Shown: positions 1,899 to 40,970, counted from the first letter of the stretch. The stretch: 64,000 nt of DNA from a bacterium (GCA_030704665.1 JAUYID010000009.1:330460-394459), one strand, 5' to 3'. Notes: generated by a model not told the origin, from the letters alone. Translations and numbers: made by a program.

Positions 1899-1922
1899 TT
1901 GAATTTAAGCGAAGGAAAAAGT
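1899..1922 (+). repeat. Copy 3 of the conserved upstream motif (TTGAATTTAAGCGAAGGAAAAAGT)
   Basis: Read directly, 13 nt upstream of ATG 1936. Preceded by an imperfect hairpin (GCGCTACGAgcaaTCGTgGCGC) that follows the stop of the previous ORF. Confidence 0.6.
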
Positions 1923-1935
1923 TAAAATTTATGCG

Positions 1936-11773: not shown

Positions 11774-11812
11774 AACTCCGTTCTTTGGATTGTTCTCTGT
11801 TATAATCTTGGG

Positions 11813-12940
11813 ATGTTAAAAGTTGGTATTGTAGGGCTTCCAAATGTGGGTAAGTCCACTTTGTTTAACGCTTTACTAAAAAAACAAGTTGCGGCTAGTG
11901 CAAACTATCCCTTTACCACCATTGAGCCCAATGTTGGTGTGGTTGAGGTTCCGGACGGGCGTCTAGAAAAATTGGCTCAAGTCGTTAAAACCGAAAAAAT
12001 CATTCCGGCGGCGGTTGAGTTTGTTGACATTGCCGGCTTGGTCAAGGGAGCCGCTGAGGGAGAGGGGCTGGGGAACAAGTTTCTTTCTCATATTCGTGAG
12101 GTTGATGCGATTGCCCACGTAGTGCGGGCTTTTGAAGATCCCAATGTTTTGCGCAGTGATTCGTCAACAGATCCGAAGAATGACGTGGAAACAATTAACA
12201 CTGAACTCATTCTTGCTGATCTAGAAACTGTTACGAAATTAATTGATGGAGCAGAGCGAGAATTAAAGGGAATGCAGAATGCAGAATTAAGAGCTGGGAA
12301 TGAAAAGTTAAAAACCTTGAAGAAAATTAAATCTGGGCTCGACCAAGGGGTTTTGGCCAAGGGGGCTGAACTAACCAAAGAAGAGCTTGAAGCAGTGGGC
12401 CCGCTGCCACTGATTACCATCAAACCTACTATATATGTATACAATGTCAGCGAAGCTGACTTGAATGAAGAATTAAACCCTTCACGAGCTCAGGGACTGC
12501 TTTCTTCGAAAGTAAGAATTGAGAATTTAAAAAAATTCACTCCAAGTGTGGTTATTTGTGCCAAAGTTGAGGCCGAACTAGCAGAACTGAGTGCTGCTGA
12601 GCAAAAGGATTATTTGCAAGAGTTGGGTGTAGATCAGTCTGGGTTGGAGCGGCTGATACGGGAAAGTTACGAACTGTTAGGGTTAATCACTTACTTCACT
12701 GCCGGAGAAAAAGAAGCGCGGGCTTGGACGATCAAAAAAGGAACCAAAGCCCCGACTGCGGCCGGAGTGATTCACACTGATTTTGAACGTGGTTTTATCA
12801 AAGCGGAAGTGATCAATTGGGAAAAACTGGTTGAAGCTCCCGGCTGGAATCCTGCTCGGGAAAAGGGTTGGGTCGCTCTCGTTGGTAAGGACTATCTCTT
12901 CCAAGACGGGGACACCGCTATTTTTAAGTTCAATACTTAA
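11813..12940 (+). CDS. ychF: Ribosome-binding ATPase YchF (Obg-family GTPase)
   Basis: MLKVGIVGLPNVGKSTLFNALL, G-domain motifs, C-terminal TGS domain (GFIKAEVI…); 376 aa. Confidence 0.9.
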   Translation: MLKVGIVGLPNVGKSTLFNALLKKQVAASANYPFTTIEPNVGVVEVPDGRLEKLAQVVKTEKIIPAAVEFVDIAGLVKGAAEGEGLGNKFLSHIREVDAIAHVVRAFEDPNVLRSDSSTDPKNDVETINTELILADLETVTKLIDGAERELKGMQNAELRAGNEKLKTLKKIKSGLDQGVLAKGAELTKEELEAVGPLPLITIKPTIYVYNVSEADLNEELNPSRAQGLLSSKVRIENLKKFTPSVVICAKVEAELAELSAAEQKDYLQELGVDQSGLERLIRESYELLGLITYFTAGEKEARAWTIKKGTKAPTAAGVIHTDFERGFIKAEVINWEKLVEAPGWNPAREKGWVALVGKDYLFQDGDTAIFKFNT

Positions 12941-12996
12941 AAACGCGGTCCTTGCGACCACTGTTTCAAGTTCAATAACTGACTTTTAGGTCGAAA

Positions 12997-13029
12997 GGGC
13001 CGAAGCACGCAAGTGCGTTCAGTCGGCCC
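12997..13029. terminator. Hairpin GGGCCGA-(19 nt incl. GCAC-gcaa-GTGC)-TCGGCCC between convergent ychF and the 445-aa gene
   Basis: Inverted repeat read directly, placed between the two convergent stop codons. Confidence 0.45.
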
Positions 13030-14356
13030 GTCTCGATCTCTCCGTAGTCTCTTCCTGGGGTTGGACAAAGAGTAGCGACCCAGCCCCGTTGCAAGAAGAC
13101 GATTGCTCTCGGTGCGATTCTGTAGCCAAAGTACGCAGAGCGTCCTTCTTCAGCTTCTTGGTTTGGAACTTACCCCTTTTTTCACAGCGTCGACAGTGCC
13201 AGGTGTAGCGTAGGATCCGTGGTGGGCGGCCAACACGGAGAGTCTGCAACCACTCTTCTTGCCGAGACAGAAAACGCTCGCTGAGACGGGGTTGGTAGGG
13301 TAGGTCTTTGACTTCATGCTCCCAACAAAGATGGCCAGCACAAAAGCGCCGTGCGCAGGTCCCACAGCGCCGTCCGTAAGCTTTGCTACACCAGCCCCCA
13401 AAGGAACAGCTTGTGTTCTTTCCCAGTGGGTTGTTAATTGTTAGCGTACTGACATGCGGTTCGGTTGTCGGAACAGTTTCTCTGTTTAGGTTAACTAGCC
13501 TGCGTAGGCTGGCGAACTCATCGACTGGAACAAAAGACCGTCCCCTTCGGTAAGACTGCGGAGAACTCTTCACCACCTGTCCCACAGATTCTGGTTTTCT
13601 GTTTTGTCCCAGGATTACTGCCTTGGCGCGCTTCTCAGAGGCTAACCCTCCGTGAGCTGCAAAGCCAATGACCAGCCTGCGTTCAAGCAATTTCTTGTCA
13701 TCCCAACAGAGACGACACTTGTCGCACTTGGTGCCGTGGGTTTGTTCTCGACAGGGAATAACCTTCAACCCAGCCATGTCGTAAACACTGTTTGAAGCGT
13801 GTTCAGTGACGACGATGGCTGCTGCATAACCTCTTTCCCAGGCAACTTCGACATCGGCCTTGGTTTCGCAGGAAGCCAGGACCGAGACTGGACCCCAGAC
13901 CTCACTGGGGACGAGATGGGAGGCGTGGGTGTAAGTCCAAACGGCAGGCATCTCTTCCTTGGCTAGGTAGCCACGAAGACGATAGCGCTGCACGGCTTTA
14001 ACCAAAAGACGAGTTCCGGCTACGGTAGTTGAGTCTCCAACGACGTGAAGTCGCAGAGCTCGCAAACCACTGAGCTTATCAATTGCGGCTGCTTCCTCGA
14101 CTGCTAGATCAAAGGTTGTTGCCTTTGGGTTGGCCGCATTGAGGCGGCGAGTAGTCGTCATCCCAATGTAGCCGTTTTCGGCATAACAACCGTTGTTCAG
14201 AAGGGGGCAAGTTTTTGGGCAAGAGCCTTGGGAGACGTTGGTAGTAGAAACCGGACCGATCTTGTTGTTGGCCGTCACCTCTTTGGCGAAAACTGAGGGC
14301 AAAGGGGCTTCGGGAGTGTTTGGAACCCCGACCAAGTTTATGGCTTGATTGACCAC
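13019..14356 (-). CDS. Cys-rich hypothetical protein (445 aa) in a GC-rich (~55%) island; N-terminal CPxTCP…GCYA cysteine cluster and several CxxC pairs; possibly phage/plasmid-derived
   Basis: GTG start with strong AAGGAGG SD; own promoter. Recognition of the N-terminal motif as a phage-associated family is from memory and uncertain. Confidence 0.5.
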   Translation of the reverse strand: MVNQAINLVGVPNTPEAPLPSVFAKEVTANNKIGPVSTTNVSQGSCPKTCPLLNNGCYAENGYIGMTTTRRLNAANPKATTFDLAVEEAAAIDKLSGLRALRLHVVGDSTTVAGTRLLVKAVQRYRLRGYLAKEEMPAVWTYTHASHLVPSEVWGPVSVLASCETKADVEVAWERGYAAAIVVTEHASNSVYDMAGLKVIPCREQTHGTKCDKCRLCWDDKKLLERRLVIGFAAHGGLASEKRAKAVILGQNRKPESVGQVVKSSPQSYRRGRSFVPVDEFASLRRLVNLNRETVPTTEPHVSTLTINNPLGKNTSCSFGGWCSKAYGRRCGTCARRFCAGHLCWEHEVKDLPYQPRLSERFLSRQEEWLQTLRVGRPPRILRYTWHCRRCEKRGKFQTKKLKKDALRTLATESHREQSSSCNGAGSLLFVQPQEETTERSRRAD

Positions 14357-14401
14357 TTCCGAGACCTCCTTTCCTTCGTTCTCTCGTCTTCTCTCGAGCC
14401 G

Positions 14402-14430
14402 ATAATATTATTTGTCAGGATAAATTGCAA
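14402..14430 (-). promoter_or_regulatory. Sigma70-like promoter TTGCAA-17-TATTAT for the 445-aa Cys-rich gene (minus strand)
   Basis: Hexamers and spacing read on the reverse complement; ~45 nt upstream of the GTG start. Confidence 0.5.
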
Positions 14431-14462
14431 GATTGTTTTAGGGTTGGCTAAAAATTTGGGGT

Positions 14463-14501
14463 GGGACCGGTTGCTTGAGAGCGAGAAAAGCAACCGGTCC
14501 C
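14463..14501. other. Perfect 14-bp inverted repeat GGGACCGGTTGCTT-(11 nt)-AAGCAACCGGTCCC between the two island genes (terminator or operator palindrome)
   Basis: Read directly. On the minus strand it is followed by ACCCCAAATTTTT. Confidence 0.5.
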
Positions 14502-14766
14502 GGGCGGTGGGTAGGTAGAAAGCGAACTTCAAGTGGCGATGCCAAACTCTTGAGCAAGCGTGACCGCGTTGGTCCAGAGCCGGGTTCCAAGACCATCAGG
14601 ACATGAAAGAGCGTTGCGTCGGTGGGACCGCAGCAGGCGCGTGATCAGGTTCTTGCCCAGACTGAGCTTGCCACTACTCCCACACCGATAACAGCTCCAC
14701 CGCGCGCAGCTTTGAATCTCCTCCGTTTGCGCTAGCATCATGGTAAGCCTTTCTTGTCTTTTTCAG

Positions 14767-15081
14767 CTAGACACCTCTAGGCATCGGGGTCCTGGTTTGG
14801 AAACAGGAGCTACAGTAGACCGGCAGACCTGGCTTTGGTACGAAAGGGACTTTGGCGAGCCCTCCGCAGTCAGTGCAGGTTGTCTCGCTCAGTACTCTGT
14901 CCCCAGATCGGGAAGCCTGCTCCCACTCTTCGAAACGTGCTCGTTTGGCCACTCTGCAGCCAGGACACCGCTTGGGAGGGTTGTTTAACCCCTTATCCCG
15001 GTAAAACTCTTGCTCGCCAGCTGTGAAGCTGAAGTCGTCCCCACAGTCCTTGCAAGAAAGAACCTTGTCTCGAAAACTCAC
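14767..15081 (-). CDS. Tandem zinc-ribbon domain protein (CxxCG…FxFTAGEQEFY…KRCxxCR repeated twice), GC-rich island
   Basis: GTG start with AAGGAG SD gives a 104-aa protein. The upstream part of the longer track ORF 14767..15183 overlaps the rpsF promoter, so it is unlikely to be coding. Confidence 0.5.
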   Translation of the reverse strand: MSFRDKVLSCKDCGDDFSFTAGEQEFYRDKGLNNPPKRCPGCRVAKRARFEEWEQASRSGDRVLSETTCTDCGGLAKVPFVPKPGLPVYCSSCFQTRTPMPRGV

Positions 15082-15161
15082 CGTTCTCTCCTTTTCACCT
15101 TCCCGGATTCTTAGGCGGGATAATATCTCGAAAAGACAAAAATTGCAAATTACAAAAAAGC

Positions 15162-15191
15162 TTGAAGGTGCTTGCTCCCGCATGTTATACT
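15162..15191 (+). promoter_or_regulatory. Sigma70-like promoter TTGAAG-17-TTATAC(T) for the rpsF-ssb-rpsR operon
   Basis: Hexamers read directly ~50 nt upstream of the rpsF ATG. Confidence 0.5.
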
Positions 15192-15240
15192 CGGACTCGG
15201 TTTTTAAAATACCTGAAAACGAAAGGAAACCAAAGCAAAA

Positions 15241-15588
15241 ATGGCTGACTATGAGCTTGCTTTAGTAACTTCTGACGATTTGCCAGAAAAAGACAAAAAA
15301 GAGTTGCTTTCGACAGTCGAAAAGAAAGTTGCTCTCGGCGAAGGAAAAGTGGGAAATATTGAAGAGTGGCCGAGAAAAAGCCTCGCTTACCCAATCAACA
15401 AAAAAACTACAGCCAATTTTACTTTCGTTGAATTTAGTGGAGATGCCTCTGTTCCAGCGGCGATCAGACGAGAACTGAACTTGTCCGAAAACATTTTGCG
15501 TTCCCTTTTAATAAAAAAAGAGGCAGTCAAGGCAAAAGCCAAAGATAGGAGAGCAAGGATCAAAAAGGCCAAGGAGGATCTGAATTAA
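15241..15588 (+). CDS. rpsF: 30S ribosomal protein S6
   Basis: MADYELALVTSDDL…IEEWPRKSLAYPINK typical of S6, with a basic C-terminal tail. Confidence 0.9.
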   Translation: MADYELALVTSDDLPEKDKKELLSTVEKKVALGEGKVGNIEEWPRKSLAYPINKKTTANFTFVEFSGDASVPAAIRRELNLSENILRSLLIKKEAVKAKAKDRRARIKKAKEDLN

Positions 15589-16530: not shown

Positions 16531-17580
16531 ATGAGCGTACCAAAAGGCAAACTTGTCACCATCGATATTGGTTCTTCCTGGACAAAAGTTTTTGTCATTG
16601 ATCATGACCGTGGCAACAAACTGGCGATTGGGGGTAGCTACAGTCTTCCAACCTCGAGCGGAGACCTGAAACTCTCTATCGAAGAAATTTTTCAAAAACT
16701 AAAAATCATTCCGAAAGAAAATGTTTTGCTTTTCTCAAGCAGCTTTGAAGAAGCTGATAGTCTTGCCAGCGACTATAAGGGAATTTTCGTTCCTTTGGCT
16801 GAAATAAAGAAAAACTTGGGAGTGTGGCTCAAACAGCAAGGCTACCCAAACTGCAAATTTTTTGACGCGGGTAGTGATATTTTTAAAGCTGACTACAAAG
16901 TAAACGAACTTGGGGCTTTCCTTTCCTTTTCGTTTGGAGAAATTGATCTGGAAAACCATCTTGCCAATCGAGCCATGCATTTTCATACTTTAGCTGAAAC
17001 TCAGAAGGAAATGGAGACGGACCGGGCGGTAATACGCTCTGCTCTCGCGAAACTCGAGGACAGCCTGAATGAGGCGAGCAACGTCTTGATGACGGGAGCT
17101 TTGGTTGCTGCTCAGACCAAGTTTTCAAAACTTGCCTTGGTCATGCTTGACGTTTTGAGTCCACACAAAGTGGCTGAAGTTTTGGTTGATACCAAAAACT
17201 TTGCGAACAGTTGGGGAGCGGCAATTACTAAATATAAAGAACTGCTCGATTTCGAAATCGATTTTGTGGAAAAACTAGGTAGTTTTGTTTCCTTGGGTGG
17301 GGAGGGAACAGTTGGCTTGGACTACGGACTGAAAAATGTGCAGGAAGTCAAGGTCGCCGAAAATGAGATTGCTTTGATCCCAGCCAATGAGGAACAAGAA
17401 GTTCAGGTTGAGTTTTCCATTGGCAAAGAAAAGCGTAAAGTGGAAACCGGTGGAGGACACTACGGAATTTTGCTAGACGGAAGAAAAAAACCTTTACCGC
17501 TGATTTTTGGACAGTCGTCTTCCCAAAAAGCAATGTTGAAATGGGAAGAAGCAATTGAAAAAGTGGAGCTGATCAAATGA
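16531..17580 (+). CDS. Hypothetical protein; N-terminus (LVTIDIGSSWTKVFVI) faintly resembles the phosphate-1 motif of actin-like (ASKHA) ATPases
   Basis: 349-aa ORF with an upstream promoter (TTGGGC-16-TGgTATAAT). Overlaps the next ORF by 4 nt. Confidence 0.5.
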   Translation: MSVPKGKLVTIDIGSSWTKVFVIDHDRGNKLAIGGSYSLPTSSGDLKLSIEEIFQKLKIIPKENVLLFSSSFEEADSLASDYKGIFVPLAEIKKNLGVWLKQQGYPNCKFFDAGSDIFKADYKVNELGAFLSFSFGEIDLENHLANRAMHFHTLAETQKEMETDRAVIRSALAKLEDSLNEASNVLMTGALVAAQTKFSKLALVMLDVLSPHKVAEVLVDTKNFANSWGAAITKYKELLDFEIDFVEKLGSFVSLGGEGTVGLDYGLKNVQEVKVAENEIALIPANEEQEVQVEFSIGKEKRKVETGGGHYGILLDGRKKPLPLIFGQSSSQKAMLKWEEAIEKVELIK

Positions 17581-18635
17581 TCAATCCCACTATCTTGCGT
17601 ATCGGGTCGAGTTCTTATGATCTGGTCAGAAAATTTCCCGGAAAGGGTAAGGCCAGTGTTAAAGTTGGGGACAGTGTGGCCGCAGCTGATATCGTGGCCC
17701 ATTGCGAAGTTTCGGCGGGACAAAGACTAGTAAAAGTGGCACACAGTTTGGGAGTGGGCGCGCGCGAGGTAGAAAAATATTTGATCCGTTCGGTAGGAGA
17801 CAGAATTTACCAGGGGGAAGTGATTGCCCGTAGAACTGGAGTACTTGGCTTGGGTAAAAAAGAGGTCAAGTCGCCAGCCGATGGTTTGATTTTTGGTGTC
17901 GATGTCAACGGAGACTTGATCATCAAATTCATGCCGACTTCGATTCGCCTCGCAGCCGGAGCAAGTGGTAAAGTGACTGATGTGTCCGAAGACGGTGTGA
18001 CGATTTCAACTAATGTGACTGAAGTTGCCGCCCCGATCGCTTCCGGAAAAGAACGGGACGGAGCGCTAAAGGTGGTTGGTTCCCACAATGATTTTCTTTT
18101 GCCTCAGCACATTGATGCTTCGGCGAGTGGAAAAATTATCGTCGGTGGAGCCCTAGTCGAGCGGGCGACGATCGAAAAAGCACTGACTGTAGGTGTGCAC
18201 GGTATCGTTGTCGGAGGAATAAACTACCGTGATTTTTTAAGCCTTGGTGTTGGTAGTGATGTCGGTTTGACGGTTTTAGTTACTTGCGGCTACGGGGCCT
18301 TTCCAATGGGGGAGGATATTCACGATAAGCTCAAAGCCCTCGAGGGTTATTTTGCTTTTATTTCTGGAGAAAAGGCTAAACTGGTAATCCCCGATCTTAA
18401 TGCCAAAACAACCAAAGCCAATCAACCTAGTGTGGAGAGCTGGAAGAAGCTTGGTGTCGGGGATAAAGTTAGGGTTCTCCATGAAAAAGAAGAAAAACTC
18501 CTCGGCAAAGTTTTGGAGTTGAAAGAAAACCAAGTGCTTCCTTCGACCGTGATCGCCGAAACTGCTCTTGTTGAGTTGACTGACGGAAAAAAGGTTGAAG
18601 TGGCAGCAGCCAATTTGCAAATTGTTTTTAGCTAA
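17577..18635 (+). CDS. Hypothetical protein (352 aa), Gly/Val-rich, no family recognised
   Basis: ORF translationally coupled (ATGA) to the preceding gene, followed 2 nt later by the S41 protease gene. Confidence 0.5.
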   Translation: MINPTILRIGSSSYDLVRKFPGKGKASVKVGDSVAAADIVAHCEVSAGQRLVKVAHSLGVGAREVEKYLIRSVGDRIYQGEVIARRTGVLGLGKKEVKSPADGLIFGVDVNGDLIIKFMPTSIRLAAGASGKVTDVSEDGVTISTNVTEVAAPIASGKERDGALKVVGSHNDFLLPQHIDASASGKIIVGGALVERATIEKALTVGVHGIVVGGINYRDFLSLGVGSDVGLTVLVTCGYGAFPMGEDIHDKLKALEGYFAFISGEKAKLVIPDLNAKTTKANQPSVESWKKLGVGDKVRVLHEKEEKLLGKVLELKENQVLPSTVIAETALVELTDGKKVEVAAANLQIVFS

Positions 18636-18637
18636 AA

Positions 18638-19867
18638 ATGAAAGAAAAAATCAAAAGCCTAATAGTTAAACATTACGTTCAAGCGGTTGGGGCCCTGGTA
18701 CTTTTTGCTCTTGGAGTTTGGATCGGGCAAAACTTTGACATCAACGTCGGCCAAAAAACTACCCGTGGTGAGTTCAAACCCCTGATCAGTCTCAGCAATC
18801 GTCAAACTCCGACAAATACTACGGTCAGTTTCAACCAGTTTTGGGAAGTTTGGGATCATCTAACCAGTGAGTACCTGAACAAAAATGATATTGACCAACA
18901 AAAACTTCTTTACGGAGCAATCTCAGGTTTGGTTGAAGCGGCTGGAGATCCCTACACTGTTTACCTTGACCCAGAGTCCAACAAAGACTTTGATTCGCAG
19001 CTCAACGGTACTTTTGAGGGGGTGGGGATTGAGATTGGTTCCAAGGACGGCAAACTTGTCGTCATCTCACCAATTGAAGGCACACCAGCGATGGAAGCTG
19101 GGGTACTGGCGGGGGATATCATCACCAAAATTGACGGTAAGGACGCTTCCAGCCTGTCACTAGTAGAGGCAGTCAAAACTATTCGTGGGCAAGCGGGCAC
19201 CCCCGTCCATTTTGTTTTTTCACGAGCCGGGAAACTAGTTAACAAGACCATCACTCGTACCAAAATCACCATCAAGAGTGTTGAGTTTGCCAACAAAGGA
19301 GAGGAAGTTGCTGTGATCCGGATTAATCGCTTCGGAGACTCAACTCAGGAAGAGTGGGACAGTGCGGTGAACAAATTTACTTCGGGGAAGTTCCAAAAAC
19401 TTATTCTCGATCTGCGCAACAATCCTGGTGGCAGACTGGATACTGCCATTTACATTGCCAATGAGTTTGTCGCAGCCGGAACTAGTGTAGTTTTGGAAGA
19501 AGACTCGGGTGGAAACAGACAGGAATTTAAAGGTGAGCGTAACGGGCGCCTGCAAGAGATTACCCCAGTAGTTTTGCTCAATAAAGGCAGTGCCTCAGCT
19601 TCTGAAATTGTCGCCGGAGCCCTAAGAGACTTGAAAGGTGCACCTCTGCTCGGGGAAACCAGCTATGGAAAAGGGACGGTCCAAAAAGTTGAAGATTTGG
19701 AGGCAGGTGCAGCTCTACATATCACTATCGCTAAATGGCTTACCCCCAAAGGAATTTGGGTTCATGGTAAAGGGCTCAAGCCCGATACCGAAGTTAAACT
19801 AACCGCCAAAGACATCAAAGCAAACAAAGATCCCCAACTAGAGGCAGCCCTCAAACTGCTAAAATAA
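18638..19867 (+). CDS. C-terminal processing (S41, CtpA/Prc-like) serine protease with PDZ domain, N-terminal TM anchor
   Basis: PDZ segment GVGIEIGSKDGKLVVISPIEGTPAMEAGVLAGDIITKIDGK; S41 motifs NPGGRLDTA and NKGSASASEIVAGAL. Confidence 0.85.
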   Translation: MKEKIKSLIVKHYVQAVGALVLFALGVWIGQNFDINVGQKTTRGEFKPLISLSNRQTPTNTTVSFNQFWEVWDHLTSEYLNKNDIDQQKLLYGAISGLVEAAGDPYTVYLDPESNKDFDSQLNGTFEGVGIEIGSKDGKLVVISPIEGTPAMEAGVLAGDIITKIDGKDASSLSLVEAVKTIRGQAGTPVHFVFSRAGKLVNKTITRTKITIKSVEFANKGEEVAVIRINRFGDSTQEEWDSAVNKFTSGKFQKLILDLRNNPGGRLDTAIYIANEFVAAGTSVVLEEDSGGNRQEFKGERNGRLQEITPVVLLNKGSASASEIVAGALRDLKGAPLLGETSYGKGTVQKVEDLEAGAALHITIAKWLTPKGIWVHGKGLKPDTEVKLTAKDIKANKDPQLEAALKLLK

Positions 19868-36850: not shown

Positions 36851-37450
36851 ATGGATACTTCCCTAGGCCAAAGAATTCAGGACTTCATCCTGTCTTTGGT
36901 GGGAGTTCGGCCTGAACTGGTCAAACACTTGCAGGAGGCCGCGGATGGGGATCAGGGTGAGGTCATGAAGATCTCACGGGCGATTTCCGCCATCGACAAT
37001 ACCTCCGAGCTTCCGCAGCGTTTCGAGGCACTTTCGCCGAAGGTTCGTTTAGCTTTGGAATTCGCGGATGCATCTGCGACAGTTCGAGCAGATCTGGATT
37101 CGGCAGACGAATCGGTTCCAGATTCGCGTGGGCGTCCTCAAAAAGCAGCTGCGAAGAAGACCGCCCGCAAGACCGCCAAGAAGACGCCGAAGAAGGCGCG
37201 CAAGGCGGCCAAGAAGAAGACTGCGGCGAAGAAGACTGGGACACGCAAGAAGGCAGCGAAGAAAACCGCTGGCAAGCGTGCTGCCGGGGAGACTGCGTCC
37301 AAGAAAGCGGCGAGCAAGGGCAAAGTCGACCCCGACACTCGGGTCAAGATCGCGGCGGACTTGAAGAATGGTCACTCGCCGAAAGATATCGCCGCTCGCT
37401 ATGGGGTCACGGGTCAGGCTGTCGGCAACGTCAAGCGTTTTGGACCCTAG
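36851..37450 (+). CDS. GC-rich (~62%) DNA-binding protein: N-terminal domain, histone-H1/HU-tail-like (A/K)KKT(A) repeat tract, C-terminal helix-turn-helix
   Basis: KKAAAKKTARKTAKKTPKKARKAAKKKTAAKKTGTRKKAAKKTAGKRAAG… then GHSPKDIAARYGVTGQAVGNVKRF (HTH). K is encoded by AAG and A by GCC/GCG, unlike native genes. Own promoter TTGACA-17-TGtGATATAT and downstream terminator. Confidence 0.6.
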   Translation: MDTSLGQRIQDFILSLVGVRPELVKHLQEAADGDQGEVMKISRAISAIDNTSELPQRFEALSPKVRLALEFADASATVRADLDSADESVPDSRGRPQKAAAKKTARKTAKKTPKKARKAAKKKTAAKKTGTRKKAAKKTAGKRAAGETASKKAASKGKVDPDTRVKIAADLKNGHSPKDIAARYGVTGQAVGNVKRFGP

Positions 37451-38855: not shown

Positions 38856-40970
38856 TTAGACAGCGATCTCTACTCCTTCCCGTTTGTTCGATCTGTCGCT
38901 TTCCCGGATCAATTCGATCAGCTCATCTACCTCCCATCTGCTACCGTAGCGTTGAGAGAGACGGATCATCAGGGTTTTGGCAGTGTTGTCGAGCACTTCT
39001 CCGTTCTTTTCCGCTTCTCGTGCTTTCCCGAGCTCTTCAAAGGCAGTGGGTAGAAGCTTCGGGACAAGACCTGCTGGGATACCGCAGCGGTTGTCGATCA
39101 GACGAGCATTGAAGGTCAAGTCGCGGTTGACGACACTGGCTAGAAGAAGTTCCCAACTCGAGGTTGTGAACTTGAACGGAGGTTTGTTGCTCGGCTTGGC
39201 ACCATTGGCCCCGACTAGCAATGGGATCGAGCTGATCGTGGGCGTCTGACCTTTGGGGGTCAGATGGATGATGACCTCAGCGATACTTCCAAAGGTCCCA
39301 AGCCATTGGGTCCTAAAGCTATCCAGGAATTGCGAAAATTCCGGAGAAGTGCTCAAGGATGGATCATACAGGGCGTCATTTACCTTCCTCACCACCGAGT
39401 TTAGGTACATATTCGCATCGTCCGGCTTGGTGGGCCCACCTACTGCTTGAGACAGTTGGTACGGGTTCAGGTTTTTTCGGGTAAGAAAGGCAAAGCGCGC
39501 AATCTTGAGCTCTTCGGCGCTGAAGTTCAGATCAAAGCCTGAGGCCGCGACTTCTTCTTCTTCTTCTTCCTCGTCTGCCTCCCCAGGATCTTTACTCTCA
39601 GCAGATAATCGAGCTGCGGCCGCTGCCTGCTCCCTTTCTCTCTCAAAGTCCTCAAACCCAACTGAGTTTGCCCTAACTCTTGGTACTTCCCTGGGATCAG
39701 CTGTGCCTCGGGTGAAGCGCGTGGCGAAAGCTTCAAGAGAAGAGAAGCGGACGGTCTCTCCGAATTTCTCGCGGATATCGGAGAAAAGAGTGCGAGTGGC
39801 TGCATCAAGTGATTCTTCGAGCGTGCCCCACACATGAACCATTTTCTTGATAGCTTGGTCTCGATTGATCCGGGCTGTACCGCGTGACCAACCGAATTTT
39901 TCGTCGATCCCTGACAGAGTAGTAGTGGTTGAGACGAGGAGAACCTCCCGCATTGTCTCAACCTCACGCCCGGTCAGGCTCTTCGAAGAGTCGGTTCGTT
40001 GCCTTGACGCAGGTTGTGATCGGGGAGTAGCCGGTGTAGCAAGGGTTCGCCTACTCAGAGGTGGAGACGGTGGTCTCTGAACCGGTTCTTGCGAAACGGA
40101 AACAGAAGCGGCCATTTCCTCCGTGTCTTCGTTATCACCCCGAATACCCCCTTCCGAGGGAAAAGGAAGAGCTACTCTGTCCAGAATGTCGGGAAAGGTC
40201 TGCCTGAGTTTGGAGATCAGATCCTCTCGGCTGCTTACTCCCAAGACGCGCATGACGTTAAGGATGATGCTCCCAACTGCCAGCACGGATCTACCGGTTT
40301 GCTCGGCGATCTCAGCGTTTTCCAAACCCGCAACGATGAGTTGTGCGACTTCCCATTCTTGGGCGGCTAGAGTCTTGCCGTAGAAGACATGAGAGAGCTT
40401 GGGTTCGGTCGAAGTAGAGGGCTCAGCTGTTCCTTGAGCGTTCTTCGAACCCTTGGGTCGACCGGCTCGTCTGGCCTGAACGACCGGAAGGGTTGCTTCG
40501 GCTTTGGGTTCTGTCGAAGCAGGAGTTGGCGTTTGTTCTGGCTCTGGGTCAGCAGATGGGACTTCCTTCACCGCCGAAGGCTTATCGGCTCGAAGAGCCT
40601 TTTTGGCGGGCTGAAGTCTTTGCTGTTCCTGCCTAGGAGCCTTCAAAACCTTGCCTTCTCGGACCAGCGGCCGTAGTCTGTGGTAGAAGAGCAGCTCGGT
40701 AGAGAGTTGCGCTCCGGACAGTCCGTCTGGGTTGCGTAGAGCCGTTTCAAGGCTAGCCTGGAAAAGCTCATCAGCTTGGTCAGGGTGTTTGCCGAGCCGC
40801 GTCAAGAGACGTTTGCGTTCCCGCAGACGCTCCAGACAAGCCTGATCTGGATTGGCCTTTCTTTTCTCCTGTTTCTCTGCCTCAGAGAGGAAGCTGAGAA
40901 GGGCATTTGCAGCAGTTCTGAACTCAATACTGGTCATGGGGTCTCCCTCCCTTTCATTTCCAGAATCCAT
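38856..40970 (-). CDS. GC-rich (~55%) large regulatory protein with AT-hook (RRAGRPKGSKN), LuxR/GerE-type HTH (EWEVAQLIVAGLENAEIAEQTGRSV…) and an uncharacterised ~300-aa C-terminal domain
   Basis: 704-aa ORF (likely start at the second Met, MTSIEF). Motifs read from the translation; acidic EEEEEE tract. Composition unlike the neighbouring hisS. Confidence 0.5.
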   Translation of the reverse strand: MDSGNEREGDPMTSIEFRTAANALLSFLSEAEKQEKRKANPDQACLERLRERKRLLTRLGKHPDQADELFQASLETALRNPDGLSGAQLSTELLFYHRLRPLVREGKVLKAPRQEQQRLQPAKKALRADKPSAVKEVPSADPEPEQTPTPASTEPKAEATLPVVQARRAGRPKGSKNAQGTAEPSTSTEPKLSHVFYGKTLAAQEWEVAQLIVAGLENAEIAEQTGRSVLAVGSIILNVMRVLGVSSREDLISKLRQTFPDILDRVALPFPSEGGIRGDNEDTEEMAASVSVSQEPVQRPPSPPLSRRTLATPATPRSQPASRQRTDSSKSLTGREVETMREVLLVSTTTTLSGIDEKFGWSRGTARINRDQAIKKMVHVWGTLEESLDAATRTLFSDIREKFGETVRFSSLEAFATRFTRGTADPREVPRVRANSVGFEDFEREREQAAAAARLSAESKDPGEADEEEEEEEVAASGFDLNFSAEELKIARFAFLTRKNLNPYQLSQAVGGPTKPDDANMYLNSVVRKVNDALYDPSLSTSPEFSQFLDSFRTQWLGTFGSIAEVIIHLTPKGQTPTISSIPLLVGANGAKPSNKPPFKFTTSSWELLLASVVNRDLTFNARLIDNRCGIPAGLVPKLLPTAFEELGKAREAEKNGEVLDNTAKTLMIRLSQRYGSRWEVDELIELIRESDRSNKREGVEIAV

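Follow-up and report, generated by a model that had tools for sequence, protein, structure and literature searches.

The occurrence of two cysteine-rich genes between two sets of housekeeping genes raises the question of how they came to be there and what their products do. The locus lies in a stretch of 64,000 nucleotides (here called the window) of a metagenome-assembled genome (MAG) from a Woykebacteria-like bacterium (Patescibacteria; candidate phyla radiation, CPR). According to the sequence and its open reading frames (ORFs), an islet at 13.0-15.2 kb carries two minus-strand genes antisense between ychF and rpsF. The reading favored here, which we consider probable with some reserve, is that the islet occupies a variable slot, consists of two units, and includes a captured phage-type gene of the DUF7227 family that would encode a DNA-acting metalloenzyme.

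Layout and transcription signals of the islet

The islet and its flanks contain the following features (coordinates of the window):

11810-12940, plus strand: ychF, left flank, outside the islet; ORF for a YchF-type GTPase, matching ychF in at least 80 genomes
12922-12977, no strand: left boundary, 14-nt direct repeat TTTTAAGTTCAATA / TTTCAAGTTCAATA that flanks the terminator hairpin (repeat search and sequence reading)
12945-12961, minus strand: hairpin resembling an intrinsic terminator, at the end of the 445-aa gene and convergent with ychF (terminator scan)
13019-14356, minus strand: 445-aa gene (DUF7227, zinc finger, and basic tail); GTG start, Shine-Dalgarno (SD) site AAGGAGG approx. 8 nt upstream
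13019-13315, minus strand: unique Arg/Lys-rich C-terminal tail, aa 348-445, including WHCRRC; low pLDDT
13316-13408, minus strand: eight-ligand Cys/His zinc finger, aa 317-347, C-x5-C-x7-C-x2-C-x4-C-x2-H-x-C-x2-H
13628-14284, minus strand: DUF7227 domain, aa 25-243 (PF23872, E 4e-23; phrog_2554, E 3e-15)
14402-14430, minus strand: P2, promoter-like (TTGCAA-17-TATTAT), ahead of the 445-aa gene (motif search)
14463-14501, minus strand: inter-gene hairpin with a perfect 14-bp stem and an 11-nt loop (arms 14463-14476 and 14488-14501)
14529-14741, minus strand: unannotated 70-aa ORF (ORF70) or 3' untranslated region, located after the zinc-ribbon gene and before the hairpin
14767-15081, minus strand: 104-aa zinc-ribbon gene (zf_Tbcl + zf_Tbcl_2); GTG start preceded by AAAAGGAGAG; likewise called at 104 aa by NCBI
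15120-15148, minus strand: P1, promoter-like (TTGCAA-17-TATTAT), ahead of the zinc-ribbon gene and divergent from rpsF (motif search)
15241-15588, plus strand: rpsF, right flank, outside the islet; followed by ssb and rpsR

The motif TTGCAA-N17-TATTAT occurs twice in the 64 kb (0.01 matches expected), once ahead of each islet gene, and the leaders of the two genes are similar (repeat family D12). The inter-gene hairpin, which is predicted to be very stable by RNA folding (dG -26.8 kcal/mol, z -6.7) and is followed 9 nt further on by UUUUU, is probably the terminator of the upstream, zinc-ribbon unit. On the minus strand, the hairpin at the ychF boundary (dG -16.9 kcal/mol, z -4.4) is followed by GUUUUU. 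No repeat copies of either hairpin were found elsewhere in the window. Judged from these signals, the islet appears to be organized as two independent minus-strand transcription units, each with this type of promoter, an SD site, and a hairpin terminator. ORF70 has no match in protein families, PADLOC-DB, isolated phages, or Rfam, and Rfam matches are absent from the islet as a whole. The initial annotation had described a GC-rich 2.2-kb island containing a 445-aa protein with a CPxTCP...GCYA cluster, a 104-aa tandem zinc-ribbon protein, the SD site, a 14-bp palindrome between the genes, and a hairpin at the ychF boundary. Each of these elements was found in place; the promoter, of which a single copy had been listed, proved to be present twice, one site per gene.

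The composition of the islet is distinct from that of its surroundings. In 200-bp windows from 13000 to 15099, the GC content is 47.5-59.5% (mostly 52-59%), compared with 36-47% in the flanks. The mean of the 2.2-kb islet is 0.536-0.537 versus 0.460 over the 64-kb window (SD 0.028), i.e., approx. +2.7 SD, a value equaled in the window only by the stretch at 38.8-41 kb. The two genes are of similar GC content, and the excess is partly due to amino-acid composition, as GC at second codon positions (GC2) is 0.50; GC3 is merely +1.3 to +1.5 SD. Of the compositional checks proposed initially, the GC content thus deviates as described, and codon usage gives a modest signal: the 445-aa gene departs only slightly from the other genes (rank 10 of 60, z -1.7), and the zinc-ribbon gene is further off (rank 5 of 60, z -3.3).

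As the source is a metagenome-assembled genome and composition shifts at both edges of the islet, an assembly chimera or a contaminant fragment has to be considered. However, in a separate Logan assembly of run SRR13727534, the genes for S6, the zinc ribbon, DUF7227, and ychF follow one another as they do in the MAG, on a contig of 26 kb, and the 445-aa protein is identical in the NCBI MAG (Q8P13_01990) and in this independent assembly. Moreover, both boundaries are intergenic and carry functional-looking signals. An artifact of this kind is therefore extremely improbable.

Two proteins of different families

The profile searches proposed in the initial annotation assigned both proteins to families. 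The 104-aa protein matches PF13451 (70.3 bits, threshold 24, E 1e-19), PF23477 (51 bits, threshold 27, E 1e-13), and TIGR04272 (48.8 bits, threshold 36, E 4e-13). It is a member of a widespread family of small cellular zinc proteins (zf_Tbcl), the homologues of which stand alone in ordinary, unrelated cellular neighborhoods. The same domain is found in Methanosarcina mazei A00184 and A01980 (zf_Tbcl, TIGR04272), whereas the protein encoded in the window has two such domains in tandem. The M. mazei CxxC-x17-CxxC proteins have been shown by ICP-MS to bind zinc (PMC12704099). The zinc-ribbon gene may be either acquired or native.

The 445-aa protein contains 17 cysteines, including the cluster C46-x3-C50-x6-C57 (CPKTCP...GCYA), and has no NCBIfam match. 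Its PF23872 score (82.6 bits, cutoff 27) spans profile positions 6-218 of 223, and the DUF7227 domain, contained in the first 250 residues, is intact. Across three alignments of the family, with 35, 120, and 9 (remote) members, the residues Lys32, Gly34, Cys46, Cys50, Cys57, Arg102, His104, Tyr142, His144, Cys202, Cys211, Cys214, Cys217, and His235 are invariant, and all of them are present in the window protein. The AF2 model of the domain (pLDDT 94.7, pTM 0.89) consists of seven beta-alpha units. A Foldseek search of BFVD with the model retrieved the DUF7227 protein A0A6J5RX07 (E 2.6e-24, TM 0.88, rmsd 1.7 Å) and four more viral members of the family at E <= 1e-4. PDB sequence searches gave no match for the 445-aa protein, the family profile, the zinc finger, or either of two fusion proteins. 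The zinc finger (pLDDT 67-78) has no Pfam or PDB match and aligns solely with the C-termini of the phage homologues P0007 and P0008. In isolated phages, no match was found for the C-terminal half of the protein. The region comprising finger and tail (aa 251-445) is basic, with 37 Lys and Arg versus 19 Asp and Glu. DUF7227 also overlaps with the GP88 family (PF17338), as 15 of 35 close homologues match GP88 (best E 2.6e-8); the window protein does not match it at E <= 1.

DUF7227 is a large family (approx. 3,100 clusters at 50% identity) that is mostly phage-borne. Homologues of the window protein (41-54% identity) are found in phages, prophages, and an ICE-like contig; the contigs of the closest ones have 62-65% GC. 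One homologue is located on an 81-kb tailed-phage contig with a tape-measure gene and another on the ICE-like contig with TraG and an integrase. The domain is also present in 62 IMG/VR viral contigs and in isolated phages; in Prochlorococcus phage P-SSP7, gene 001 adjoins a DNA methyltransferase gene. In a Gemmata prophage, the order is integrase...DUF7227-Rad52-exonuclease-DnaB. Neighbors of DUF7227 genes include RecA (5), uracil-DNA glycosylase (UDG; 4), UvdE (1), Rad52, a D12 methyltransferase, dCMP deaminase, and ThyX, and no obligate partner gene emerged from this survey. Moreover, DUF7227 is fused to Dam, C5, and N6/N4 DNA methylases, HNH nucleases, and HTH domains; a methyltransferase is the partner in just a few per cent of the representatives. 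The family lives in the replication-recombination-modification modules of phages, prophages, and ICEs. Tunturiibacter phage Tunturi_2 gp85, P-SSP7 gene 001, and IMG/VR UViG_3300012232_000011 (PF23872 / PHROG 2554) share the domain at 25-54% identity, together with the invariant Cys/His/Lys/Arg set and the predicted fold, and the C-terminal zinc finger is also seen in the phage contig protein P0008. In contrast to these phage proteins, the window gene resides in a CPR chromosome between housekeeping operons and has an additional, unique basic tail of 100 aa.

The label 'DNA methyltransferase' carried by Tunturi_2 gp85 was rejected as evidence because this 244-aa protein is DUF7227 alone. Inteins before the invariant Cys202 were considered for homologues with a split DUF7227 match and were likewise rejected: the inserted segments are loops of low complexity and match neither inteins nor LAGLIDADG. 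Literature searches on DUF7227, GP88, and the Tunturiibacter phage found no paper or experiment.

Origin of the islet

In the lineage, the position between ychF and rpsF is conserved as a slot but varies in content. In Woykebacteria-like relatives (loci L089, L090, and L092-L095), an unrelated ORF of 104-129 aa separates ychF, the product of which carries MMR_HSR1 and YchF-GTPase_C, from rpsF, and in a Saccharibacteria genome (L032), ychF directly adjoins rpsF. The DUF7227 gene is absent from this slot in the nearest relatives, a comparison that comprises four relatives' loci with 58-68% protein identity and sets neither the timing nor the direction of the change. A ychF search of genome contigs gave, among the matches listed, only proteins of at most 56% identity from many phyla, none of them from a close relative, and of these only Saccharibacteria L032 was of use; an S6 search of metagenome contigs returned one locus. 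The relatives' slot ORF was also considered as a homologue of part of the islet or as the source of the C-terminus of the 445-aa protein, and this was rejected since an HMM of three such ORFs had no match anywhere in the window, inside or outside the islet.

Because relatives fill the slot with an unrelated ORF and Saccharibacteria lack an insert, acquisition of the DUF7227 gene by the window lineage is well supported. We infer that a phage-type element from a donor of higher GC content was the source of the 445-aa gene, which the lineage then retained. The opposite reading is that both genes are native, i.e., lineage-specific residents of a fast-evolving slot, their GC content being that of Cys/Arg/Gly/Pro-rich proteins. 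Consistent with it are the GC2 and GC3 values and the codon rank of the large gene given above, and the ordinary cellular nature of zf_Tbcl proteins. As the small gene in the relatives' slot is also GC-rich, and on the minus strand, GC richness in the slot is not unique to the window genome. In addition, since DUF7227 genes exceed their own phage loci by a median of 3.7 GC points, part of the compositional signal is a property of the family. Insertion scars were not found in the repeat search either. No short direct repeats of the kind that the initial annotation proposed to look for at the boundaries bracket the 2.2 kb as att sites; there is just the local 14-nt duplication at the ychF end, the second copy of which re-reads as the 3' end of ychF (FKFNT* vs FKFNN*), and the edges carry a 12/15 imperfect inverted pair. 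Yet DUF7227 is missing from the slot in all four relatives' loci, its nearest homologues belong to phage and ICE contexts of other phyla, the zinc-finger extension is common to phage proteins only, and CPR organisms are absent from the other NCBI-named DUF7227 matches. A native origin of the islet is thus unlikely.

The two genes might also form one functional system, such as a defense or toxin-type pair with the zinc-ribbon protein acting as regulator or partner of the enzyme. They lie next to each other on one strand and have in common a rare type of promoter, similar leaders, and similar GC content. Such a pairing is very unlikely, however, as none of 71 DUF7227 loci contains zf_Tbcl, which otherwise stands alone in unrelated neighborhoods, a strong hairpin and a second promoter lie between the genes, and neither protein (nor ORF70) matches PADLOC-DB defense models at E <= 1. 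The initial suggestion of a horizontally acquired, phage- or plasmid-derived module is therefore retained in part: the 445-aa gene is foreign and of a mobile-element type with relatives in phages, but the two genes are not a conserved module, and there are no plasmid matches to the islet. Likewise, the proposed nucleic-acid-binding or defense role agrees with the domain fusions in its first half, and defense-system matches are absent.

The islet resembles orphan phage genes stranded in bacterial chromosomes in being foreign, in having its own promoter and an atypical composition, and in its absence from the relatives' locus. It differs from them and from prophage remnants in that att repeats and an integrase are lacking, no tRNA target marks the insertion (the closest tRNAs being at 2.7 kb and 45.8 kb), and codon usage is largely ameliorated. 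The neighboring genes are those for an ABC transporter, ychF, rpsF, ssb, rpsR, and others that are conserved in the lineage; they include no integrase or other mobility gene, and no methyltransferase, recombinase, or other phage gene is found near the islet.

Predicted activity of DUF7227

In the proposed scheme, the first unit would produce the 104-aa double zinc-ribbon protein and the second the 445-aa protein, in which DUF7227 is followed by the zinc finger and the basic tail. DUF7227 is predicted to be a TIM-barrel-like metalloenzyme with three invariant cysteines after the first strand, four around strand 6, and three invariant histidines at strand ends. We infer from the sequence that the domain binds metal; together, the invariant residues may form Fe-S and/or Zn centers. 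The barrel-like model, the seven invariant cysteines, the three histidines, and the fusions point to a DNA-acting metalloenzyme. Most likely, it would modify or process DNA alongside DNA methyltransferases, thereby marking or protecting it, and the zinc finger and the basic tail would tether the enzyme to nucleic acid. A more specific proposal, which is fairly unlikely, is that DUF7227 represents an unrecognized class of Fe-S-dependent DNA-modifying enzymes with which phages, beside or fused to methyltransferases, evade restriction, and that the CPR lineage domesticated a zinc-finger-tethered copy that marks or processes its own DNA.

Two known enzyme groups offer different explanations. DUF7227 might be a phosphodiesterase of DNA repair or recombination instead of a modification enzyme, namely a metal-dependent TIM-barrel nuclease like endonuclease IV (Endo IV) or UvdE that acts on abasic sites or damaged ends within the recombination modules of phages, with the CPR copy serving as an extra repair nuclease. 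The top PDB folds are xylose-isomerase-like or Endo IV barrels (4ovx, probability 0.85; 4hno, probability 0.54; also 8z1i, 8tct, 3l23, and 7cj9), which have a beta/alpha barrel with conserved histidines and acidic residues at strand ends in common with the predicted DUF7227 fold; the invariant histidines and the neighboring UDG, UvdE, RecA, and Rad52 genes argue in the same direction. However, all PDB fold matches are insignificant (best E 2.4e-3, TM approx. 0.26), those to these barrels having E 2.4e-3 to 2.7e-3, TM 0.20-0.27, and rmsd 10-13 Å. Neither the window protein nor any of the 35 members matches Pfam AP_endonuc_2. Moreover, Endo IV lacks Cys clusters, the seven invariant cysteines being confined to DUF7227 within this comparison, and the repeated fusion to three methyltransferase families would be left unexplained. 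A repair nuclease is thus doubtful.

Alternatively, DUF7227 could be a divergent radical-SAM-type enzyme akin to DUF5131 (Gp37/Gp68), in which three cysteines would ligate a [4Fe-4S] cluster whose open iron binds SAM, four would hold an auxiliary cluster, and radical chemistry would be directed at DNA. Both are phage proteins of approx. 250-300 aa from recombination/replication modules, near phage recombination genes, and both have a three-Cys loop after the first strand: the invariant cysteines of DUF7227 between strand 1 and helix 1 end in GCYAE, and DUF5131 has C-x7-C-x2-CYAE in the same place. In addition, the C-x2-C-x2-C plus CP motif of DUF7227 resembles ferredoxin-type cluster sites. 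The Cys spacing in DUF7227 is nevertheless C-x3-C-x6-C rather than CX3CX2C or the C-x7-C-x2-C of DUF5131, with which just the terminal CYAE is shared. DUF5131 is a subgroup of the radical SAM superfamily (PMC9477430). A relationship of DUF7227 with either was not borne out, the profile comparison being insignificant: hhalign of 204 DUF7227 against 11 DUF5131 sequences gave a probability of 1.8% (E 0.028), and a single-sequence comparison gave 0.2%. In addition, none of the 35 members has a Radical_SAM or DUF5131 Pfam match, and radical SAM structures are absent from the top 50 PDB fold matches of either model. Radical chemistry of this type is therefore distinctly unlikely.

The islet itself is a modest, ordinary instance of a phage gene that ended up in the reduced genome of a CPR bacterium, and the sharper picture of DUF7227 is the more useful product. 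DUF7227 is a large, mostly phage-borne family with a predicted barrel that has no solved relative. Its independent fusions to three families of DNA methyltransferases, to HTH domains, and to HNH nucleases make it a concrete target in the search for a new DNA-directed activity of phages, and with the CPR copy, DUF7227 may be tested in a cellular setting.

Layout and composition of the islet

The GC-rich islet between ychF and rpsF carries two minus-strand genes and is arranged as follows:

11810-12940 (+): ychF, left flank
12945-12961: hairpin then U-run (dG -16.9, z -4.4), ending the large gene and facing ychF
13019-14356 (-): 445-aa ORF, the DUF7227 gene
14463-14501: intergenic hairpin, perfect 14-bp stem and 11-nt loop (dG -26.8 kcal/mol, z -6.7), between the two transcription units
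14529-14741 (-): ORF70, unannotated, 70 aa, with C-x4-C-x2-C, flanked by the zinc-ribbon stop and the strong hairpin
14767-15081 (-): 104-aa ORF, the zinc-ribbon gene, GTG start with a Shine-Dalgarno site
15241-15588 (+): rpsF, right flank

All the elements named in the initial annotation (GC-rich antisense segment, two Cys-rich genes, promoter, Shine-Dalgarno site, palindrome and hairpin) were found, and both islet junctions are reproduced in an independent assembly of run SRR13727534. The promoter reported in that annotation, TTGCAA-N17-TATTAT, exists, but in two copies rather than one: the 64-kb window contains exactly two matches (0.01 expected), one upstream of each islet gene. The leaders of both genes also share the stretch GAGAGAACG (repeat family D12). 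The zinc-ribbon gene is annotated by NCBI as 104 aa; an alternative ATG start, yielding 138 aa, would overrun the promoter. For ORF70, the libraries searched gave no homologue; its stretch either encodes a small protein or is a 3' UTR of 265 nt. Elsewhere in the window, the near-identical promoter-like sequences TTGAATTTGAGCGAAGGAAAAAGTATTAT and TTGAATTTAAGCGAAGGAAAAAGTTAAAAT (777-805 and 1899-1928, plus strand) precede two unrelated genes, 848-1228 and 1936-2481, and may be a shared regulatory element.

The window has a GC content of 46%; 200-bp windows range from 47.5 to 59.5% in the islet (mostly 52-59%) and from 36 to 47% in its flanks. The 2.2-kb mean of about 0.537 lies ~2.7 SD over the window-wide mean, and the only other stretch with comparable GC is at 38.8-41 kb. 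The foreignness signal is nevertheless weaker than raw GC implies. GC2 is 0.50 in both islet genes, which reflects the abundance of Cys, Arg, Gly, and Pro in the encoded proteins, and GC3 (0.54-0.55) is only 1.3 to 1.5 SD high. In a synonymous-codon likelihood test of 60 genes, the zinc-ribbon gene ranks 5 (z -3.3) and the large gene 10 (z -1.7), and four other window genes are more atypical in codon usage. The elevated GC originally noted is confirmed, but GC3 and the codon usage of the large gene are only mildly shifted. DUF7227 genes exceed their own phage loci by a median of 3.7 GC points (n=55), and contigs holding the closest homologues have 62-65% GC. The composition is consistent with a higher-GC donor and later amelioration, and is not decisive by itself.

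The second GC-rich stretch (38856-40970, minus strand, 53-55% GC) encodes a low-complexity protein of 704 aa that contains a GerE/LuxR HTH (PF00196, E 6.5e-7). This gene ranks fourth among the 60 for atypical codon usage (z -3.8) and may also have been acquired. The plus-strand genes at 115-696, 1297-1836, and 36851-37450 exceed all others in the window in GC3 (0.63-0.67) and deviate most in codon usage (z -4.8 to -5.7); two of these have no Pfam family, and the third is histone H1-like (HC2), Lys/Ala-rich, with a C-terminal HTH.

The ychF-rpsF slot and its occupants

S6, the rpsF product, has few close relatives, one of which belongs to Candidatus Woykebacteria (61% identity) and assigns the organism to the Microgenomates group within Patescibacteria. 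Four Woykebacteria contigs carry ychF(+), a 119-aa ORF(-), rpsF(+), and ssb, then a pair of conserved unknown genes and one for an S41 peptidase; their downstream order is that of the window, and their ychF-to-rpsF gap is ~960 bp. In two more relatives (S6 66-67%), a minus-strand ORF of 129 aa or 104 aa lies ahead of rpsF. The slot ORFs, all basic, GC-rich (51-66%), 104-129 aa long, and divergent from rpsF, are:

L092, 7018-7377 (-)
L090, 922-1311 (-)
L089, 602-916 (-)

They are weakly homologous to one another (E 1e-8; 0.015-0.03), have no Pfam family, and constitute a lineage-specific gene family; their HMM matches nothing in the islet or the remainder of the window. The Woykebacteria-like loci lack both DUF7227 and zf_Tbcl. 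The ychF-rpsF slot is therefore conserved and variable in content, and what the window carries in it is unique among available relatives, none of which has the islet at this position. On the question whether ychF adjoins rpsF in relatives, it does so in a Saccharibacteria MAG, in which rpsF-ssb-rpsR immediately follows ychF; the Woykebacteria-like contigs hold an unrelated small ORF instead. Downstream, plus-strand genes at 16531-19867 for a protein of 349 aa with a faintly MutL/actin-like ATPase N-terminus, an unknown of 352 aa, and a CtpB-like S41 peptidase come after rpsF-ssb-rpsR both here and in every relative (L090, L092-L095), forming a conserved lineage-specific cluster.

No integrase, tRNA, or bracketing direct repeat was found at the islet. 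The search for boundary repeats suggested earlier gave only a local 14-nt direct repeat around the boundary hairpin (12922-12977), which duplicates the ychF 3' end so that the second copy again reads as the ychF C-terminus and stop (FKFNT* vs FKFNN*). This sole scar-like feature may be what a small insertion left behind there.

The 104-aa protein matches zf_Tbcl (PF13451, E 1e-19) and zf_Tbcl_2 (PF23477, E 1e-13; TIGR04272), and CxxC-x17-CxxC group members of Methanosarcina mazei bind zinc (PMC12704099). Its homologues (~50% identity) are encoded by small genes that stand alone amid ordinary cellular ones. Since zf_Tbcl occurs in none of 71 DUF7227 loci, the islet genes do not form a conserved module; no link to known defence systems (PADLOC-DB) emerged for the defence-related role tentatively raised earlier.

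Occurrence and architecture of DUF7227

In the 445-aa protein, residues 25-243 form DUF7227 (PF23872, 82.6 bits; phrog_2554), and the remaining 200 residues match no family. The 461 scored homologues (~250 aa, 41-54% identity) match only its N-terminal half. An eight-ligand Cys/His finger (aa 317-347) aligns with the C-termini of only two homologues, one from an 81-kb phage contig, and the rest of the C-terminus is a poorly modelled Arg/Lys-rich tail.

Searching 1.84 billion representatives with the family profile returned 3,116 matches, and IMG/VR yielded 62 DUF7227 loci. Close homologues occur in a tailed-phage contig amid glycosyltransferases and a methyltransferase, in an ICE-like contig with TraG and integrase, in a Gemmata prophage (integrase...PAPS reductase...DUF7227-Rad52-exonuclease-DnaB), and in a phage-like contig with Rad52 and C5 methylase. 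The family is also present in isolated Tunturiibacter phages (47% identity), a Microcystis phage, Prochlorococcus P-SSP7 and P-GSP1, Thermus phiFa, and Pseudomonas Otagovirus and PAK_P1-type phages; P-SSP7 carries it as gene 001, immediately ahead of a DNA methyltransferase. A plasmid search gave zero matches, leaving the suggested plasmid origin unsupported. Counted over 150 non-redundant neighbours in viral loci, the leading families are RecA (5), UDG (4), DUF932 (3), and RNA ligase (3), then D12 MTase (2), dCMP deaminase (2), and ThyX (2), a replication, recombination, and nucleotide module without an obligate partner. In the phage contig of P0008, the homologue of closest architecture (L082, 4011-15280), DUF7227 lies amid genes for sugar epimerases, multiple glycosyltransferases, and one Methyltransf_24 protein, a cluster that could serve DNA or surface glycosylation.

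Horizontal, phage-related acquisition is well supported for the DUF7227 gene, with its phage/ICE homologues and a slot lacking it in relatives; the zinc ribbon, which is of an ordinary cellular type, may be acquired or native. We propose that a phage-derived DUF7227 gene, extended by a zinc finger and tail that would tether its product to nucleic acid, was captured into the variable slot of this CPR genome, where it sits by an unrelated small zinc-ribbon gene, each having its own promoter.

Predicted chemistry of DUF7227

The high-confidence AlphaFold2 model of the domain (pLDDT 94.7, pTM 0.89) comprises seven beta-alpha units. Invariant residues lie in the loop following strand 1 (C46-x3-C50-x6-C57) and at strands 2 (R102, H104), 3 (Y142, H144), 4 (S162), 6 (C202, then C211-x2-C214-x2-C217), and 7 (H235). 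From these catalytic-type residues at strand ends and the 3+4 cysteines, we infer an enzyme that would hold Fe-S and/or Zn centres. Homologues P0167, P0197, P0188, and P0178 carry low-complexity, Arg/Gly/Ala/Pro-rich insertions of 60-230 residues between barrel strands 5 and 6, just ahead of the invariant PC(P) motif; none of these is an intein, and P0167 and P0188 also have a C-terminal HTH domain.

Fusion partners of DUF7227 are all DNA-directed: Dam (P0117, P0173), C5 DNA methylase (P0176), N6/N4 methylase (P0255), HNH endonucleases or HNH repeats (P0248, P0193), N-terminal HTH_17 (6 of 35), and C-terminal winged-helix or sigma-r3-like HTH. The finger and basic tail of the 445-aa protein fit this pattern. 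Most likely, the enzyme acts on DNA, and a role in DNA modification or processing, allied to methyltransferases, is favoured. A repair nuclease resembling Endo IV is a rival reading: Foldseek against the PDB placed xylose-isomerase-like and Endo IV barrels first, yet only as insignificant TIM-barrel matches (E 2.4e-3, TM ~0.26), and against BFVD it retrieved other DUF7227 models only. A radical-SAM-like enzyme is the other; DUF5131 (Gp37/Gp68), which belongs to the radical SAM enzymes as a subgroup (PMC9477430), has in common with DUF7227 a three-Cys loop ending CYAE, for which reason a profile of 11 phage DUF5131 members was compared with that of DUF7227. The profile-profile probability of 1.8% (E 0.028) leaves homology unsupported, and radical SAM enzymes are absent from the PDB matches.

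The islet first described is real and its interpretation mostly correct. It represents a modest case of gene transfer.
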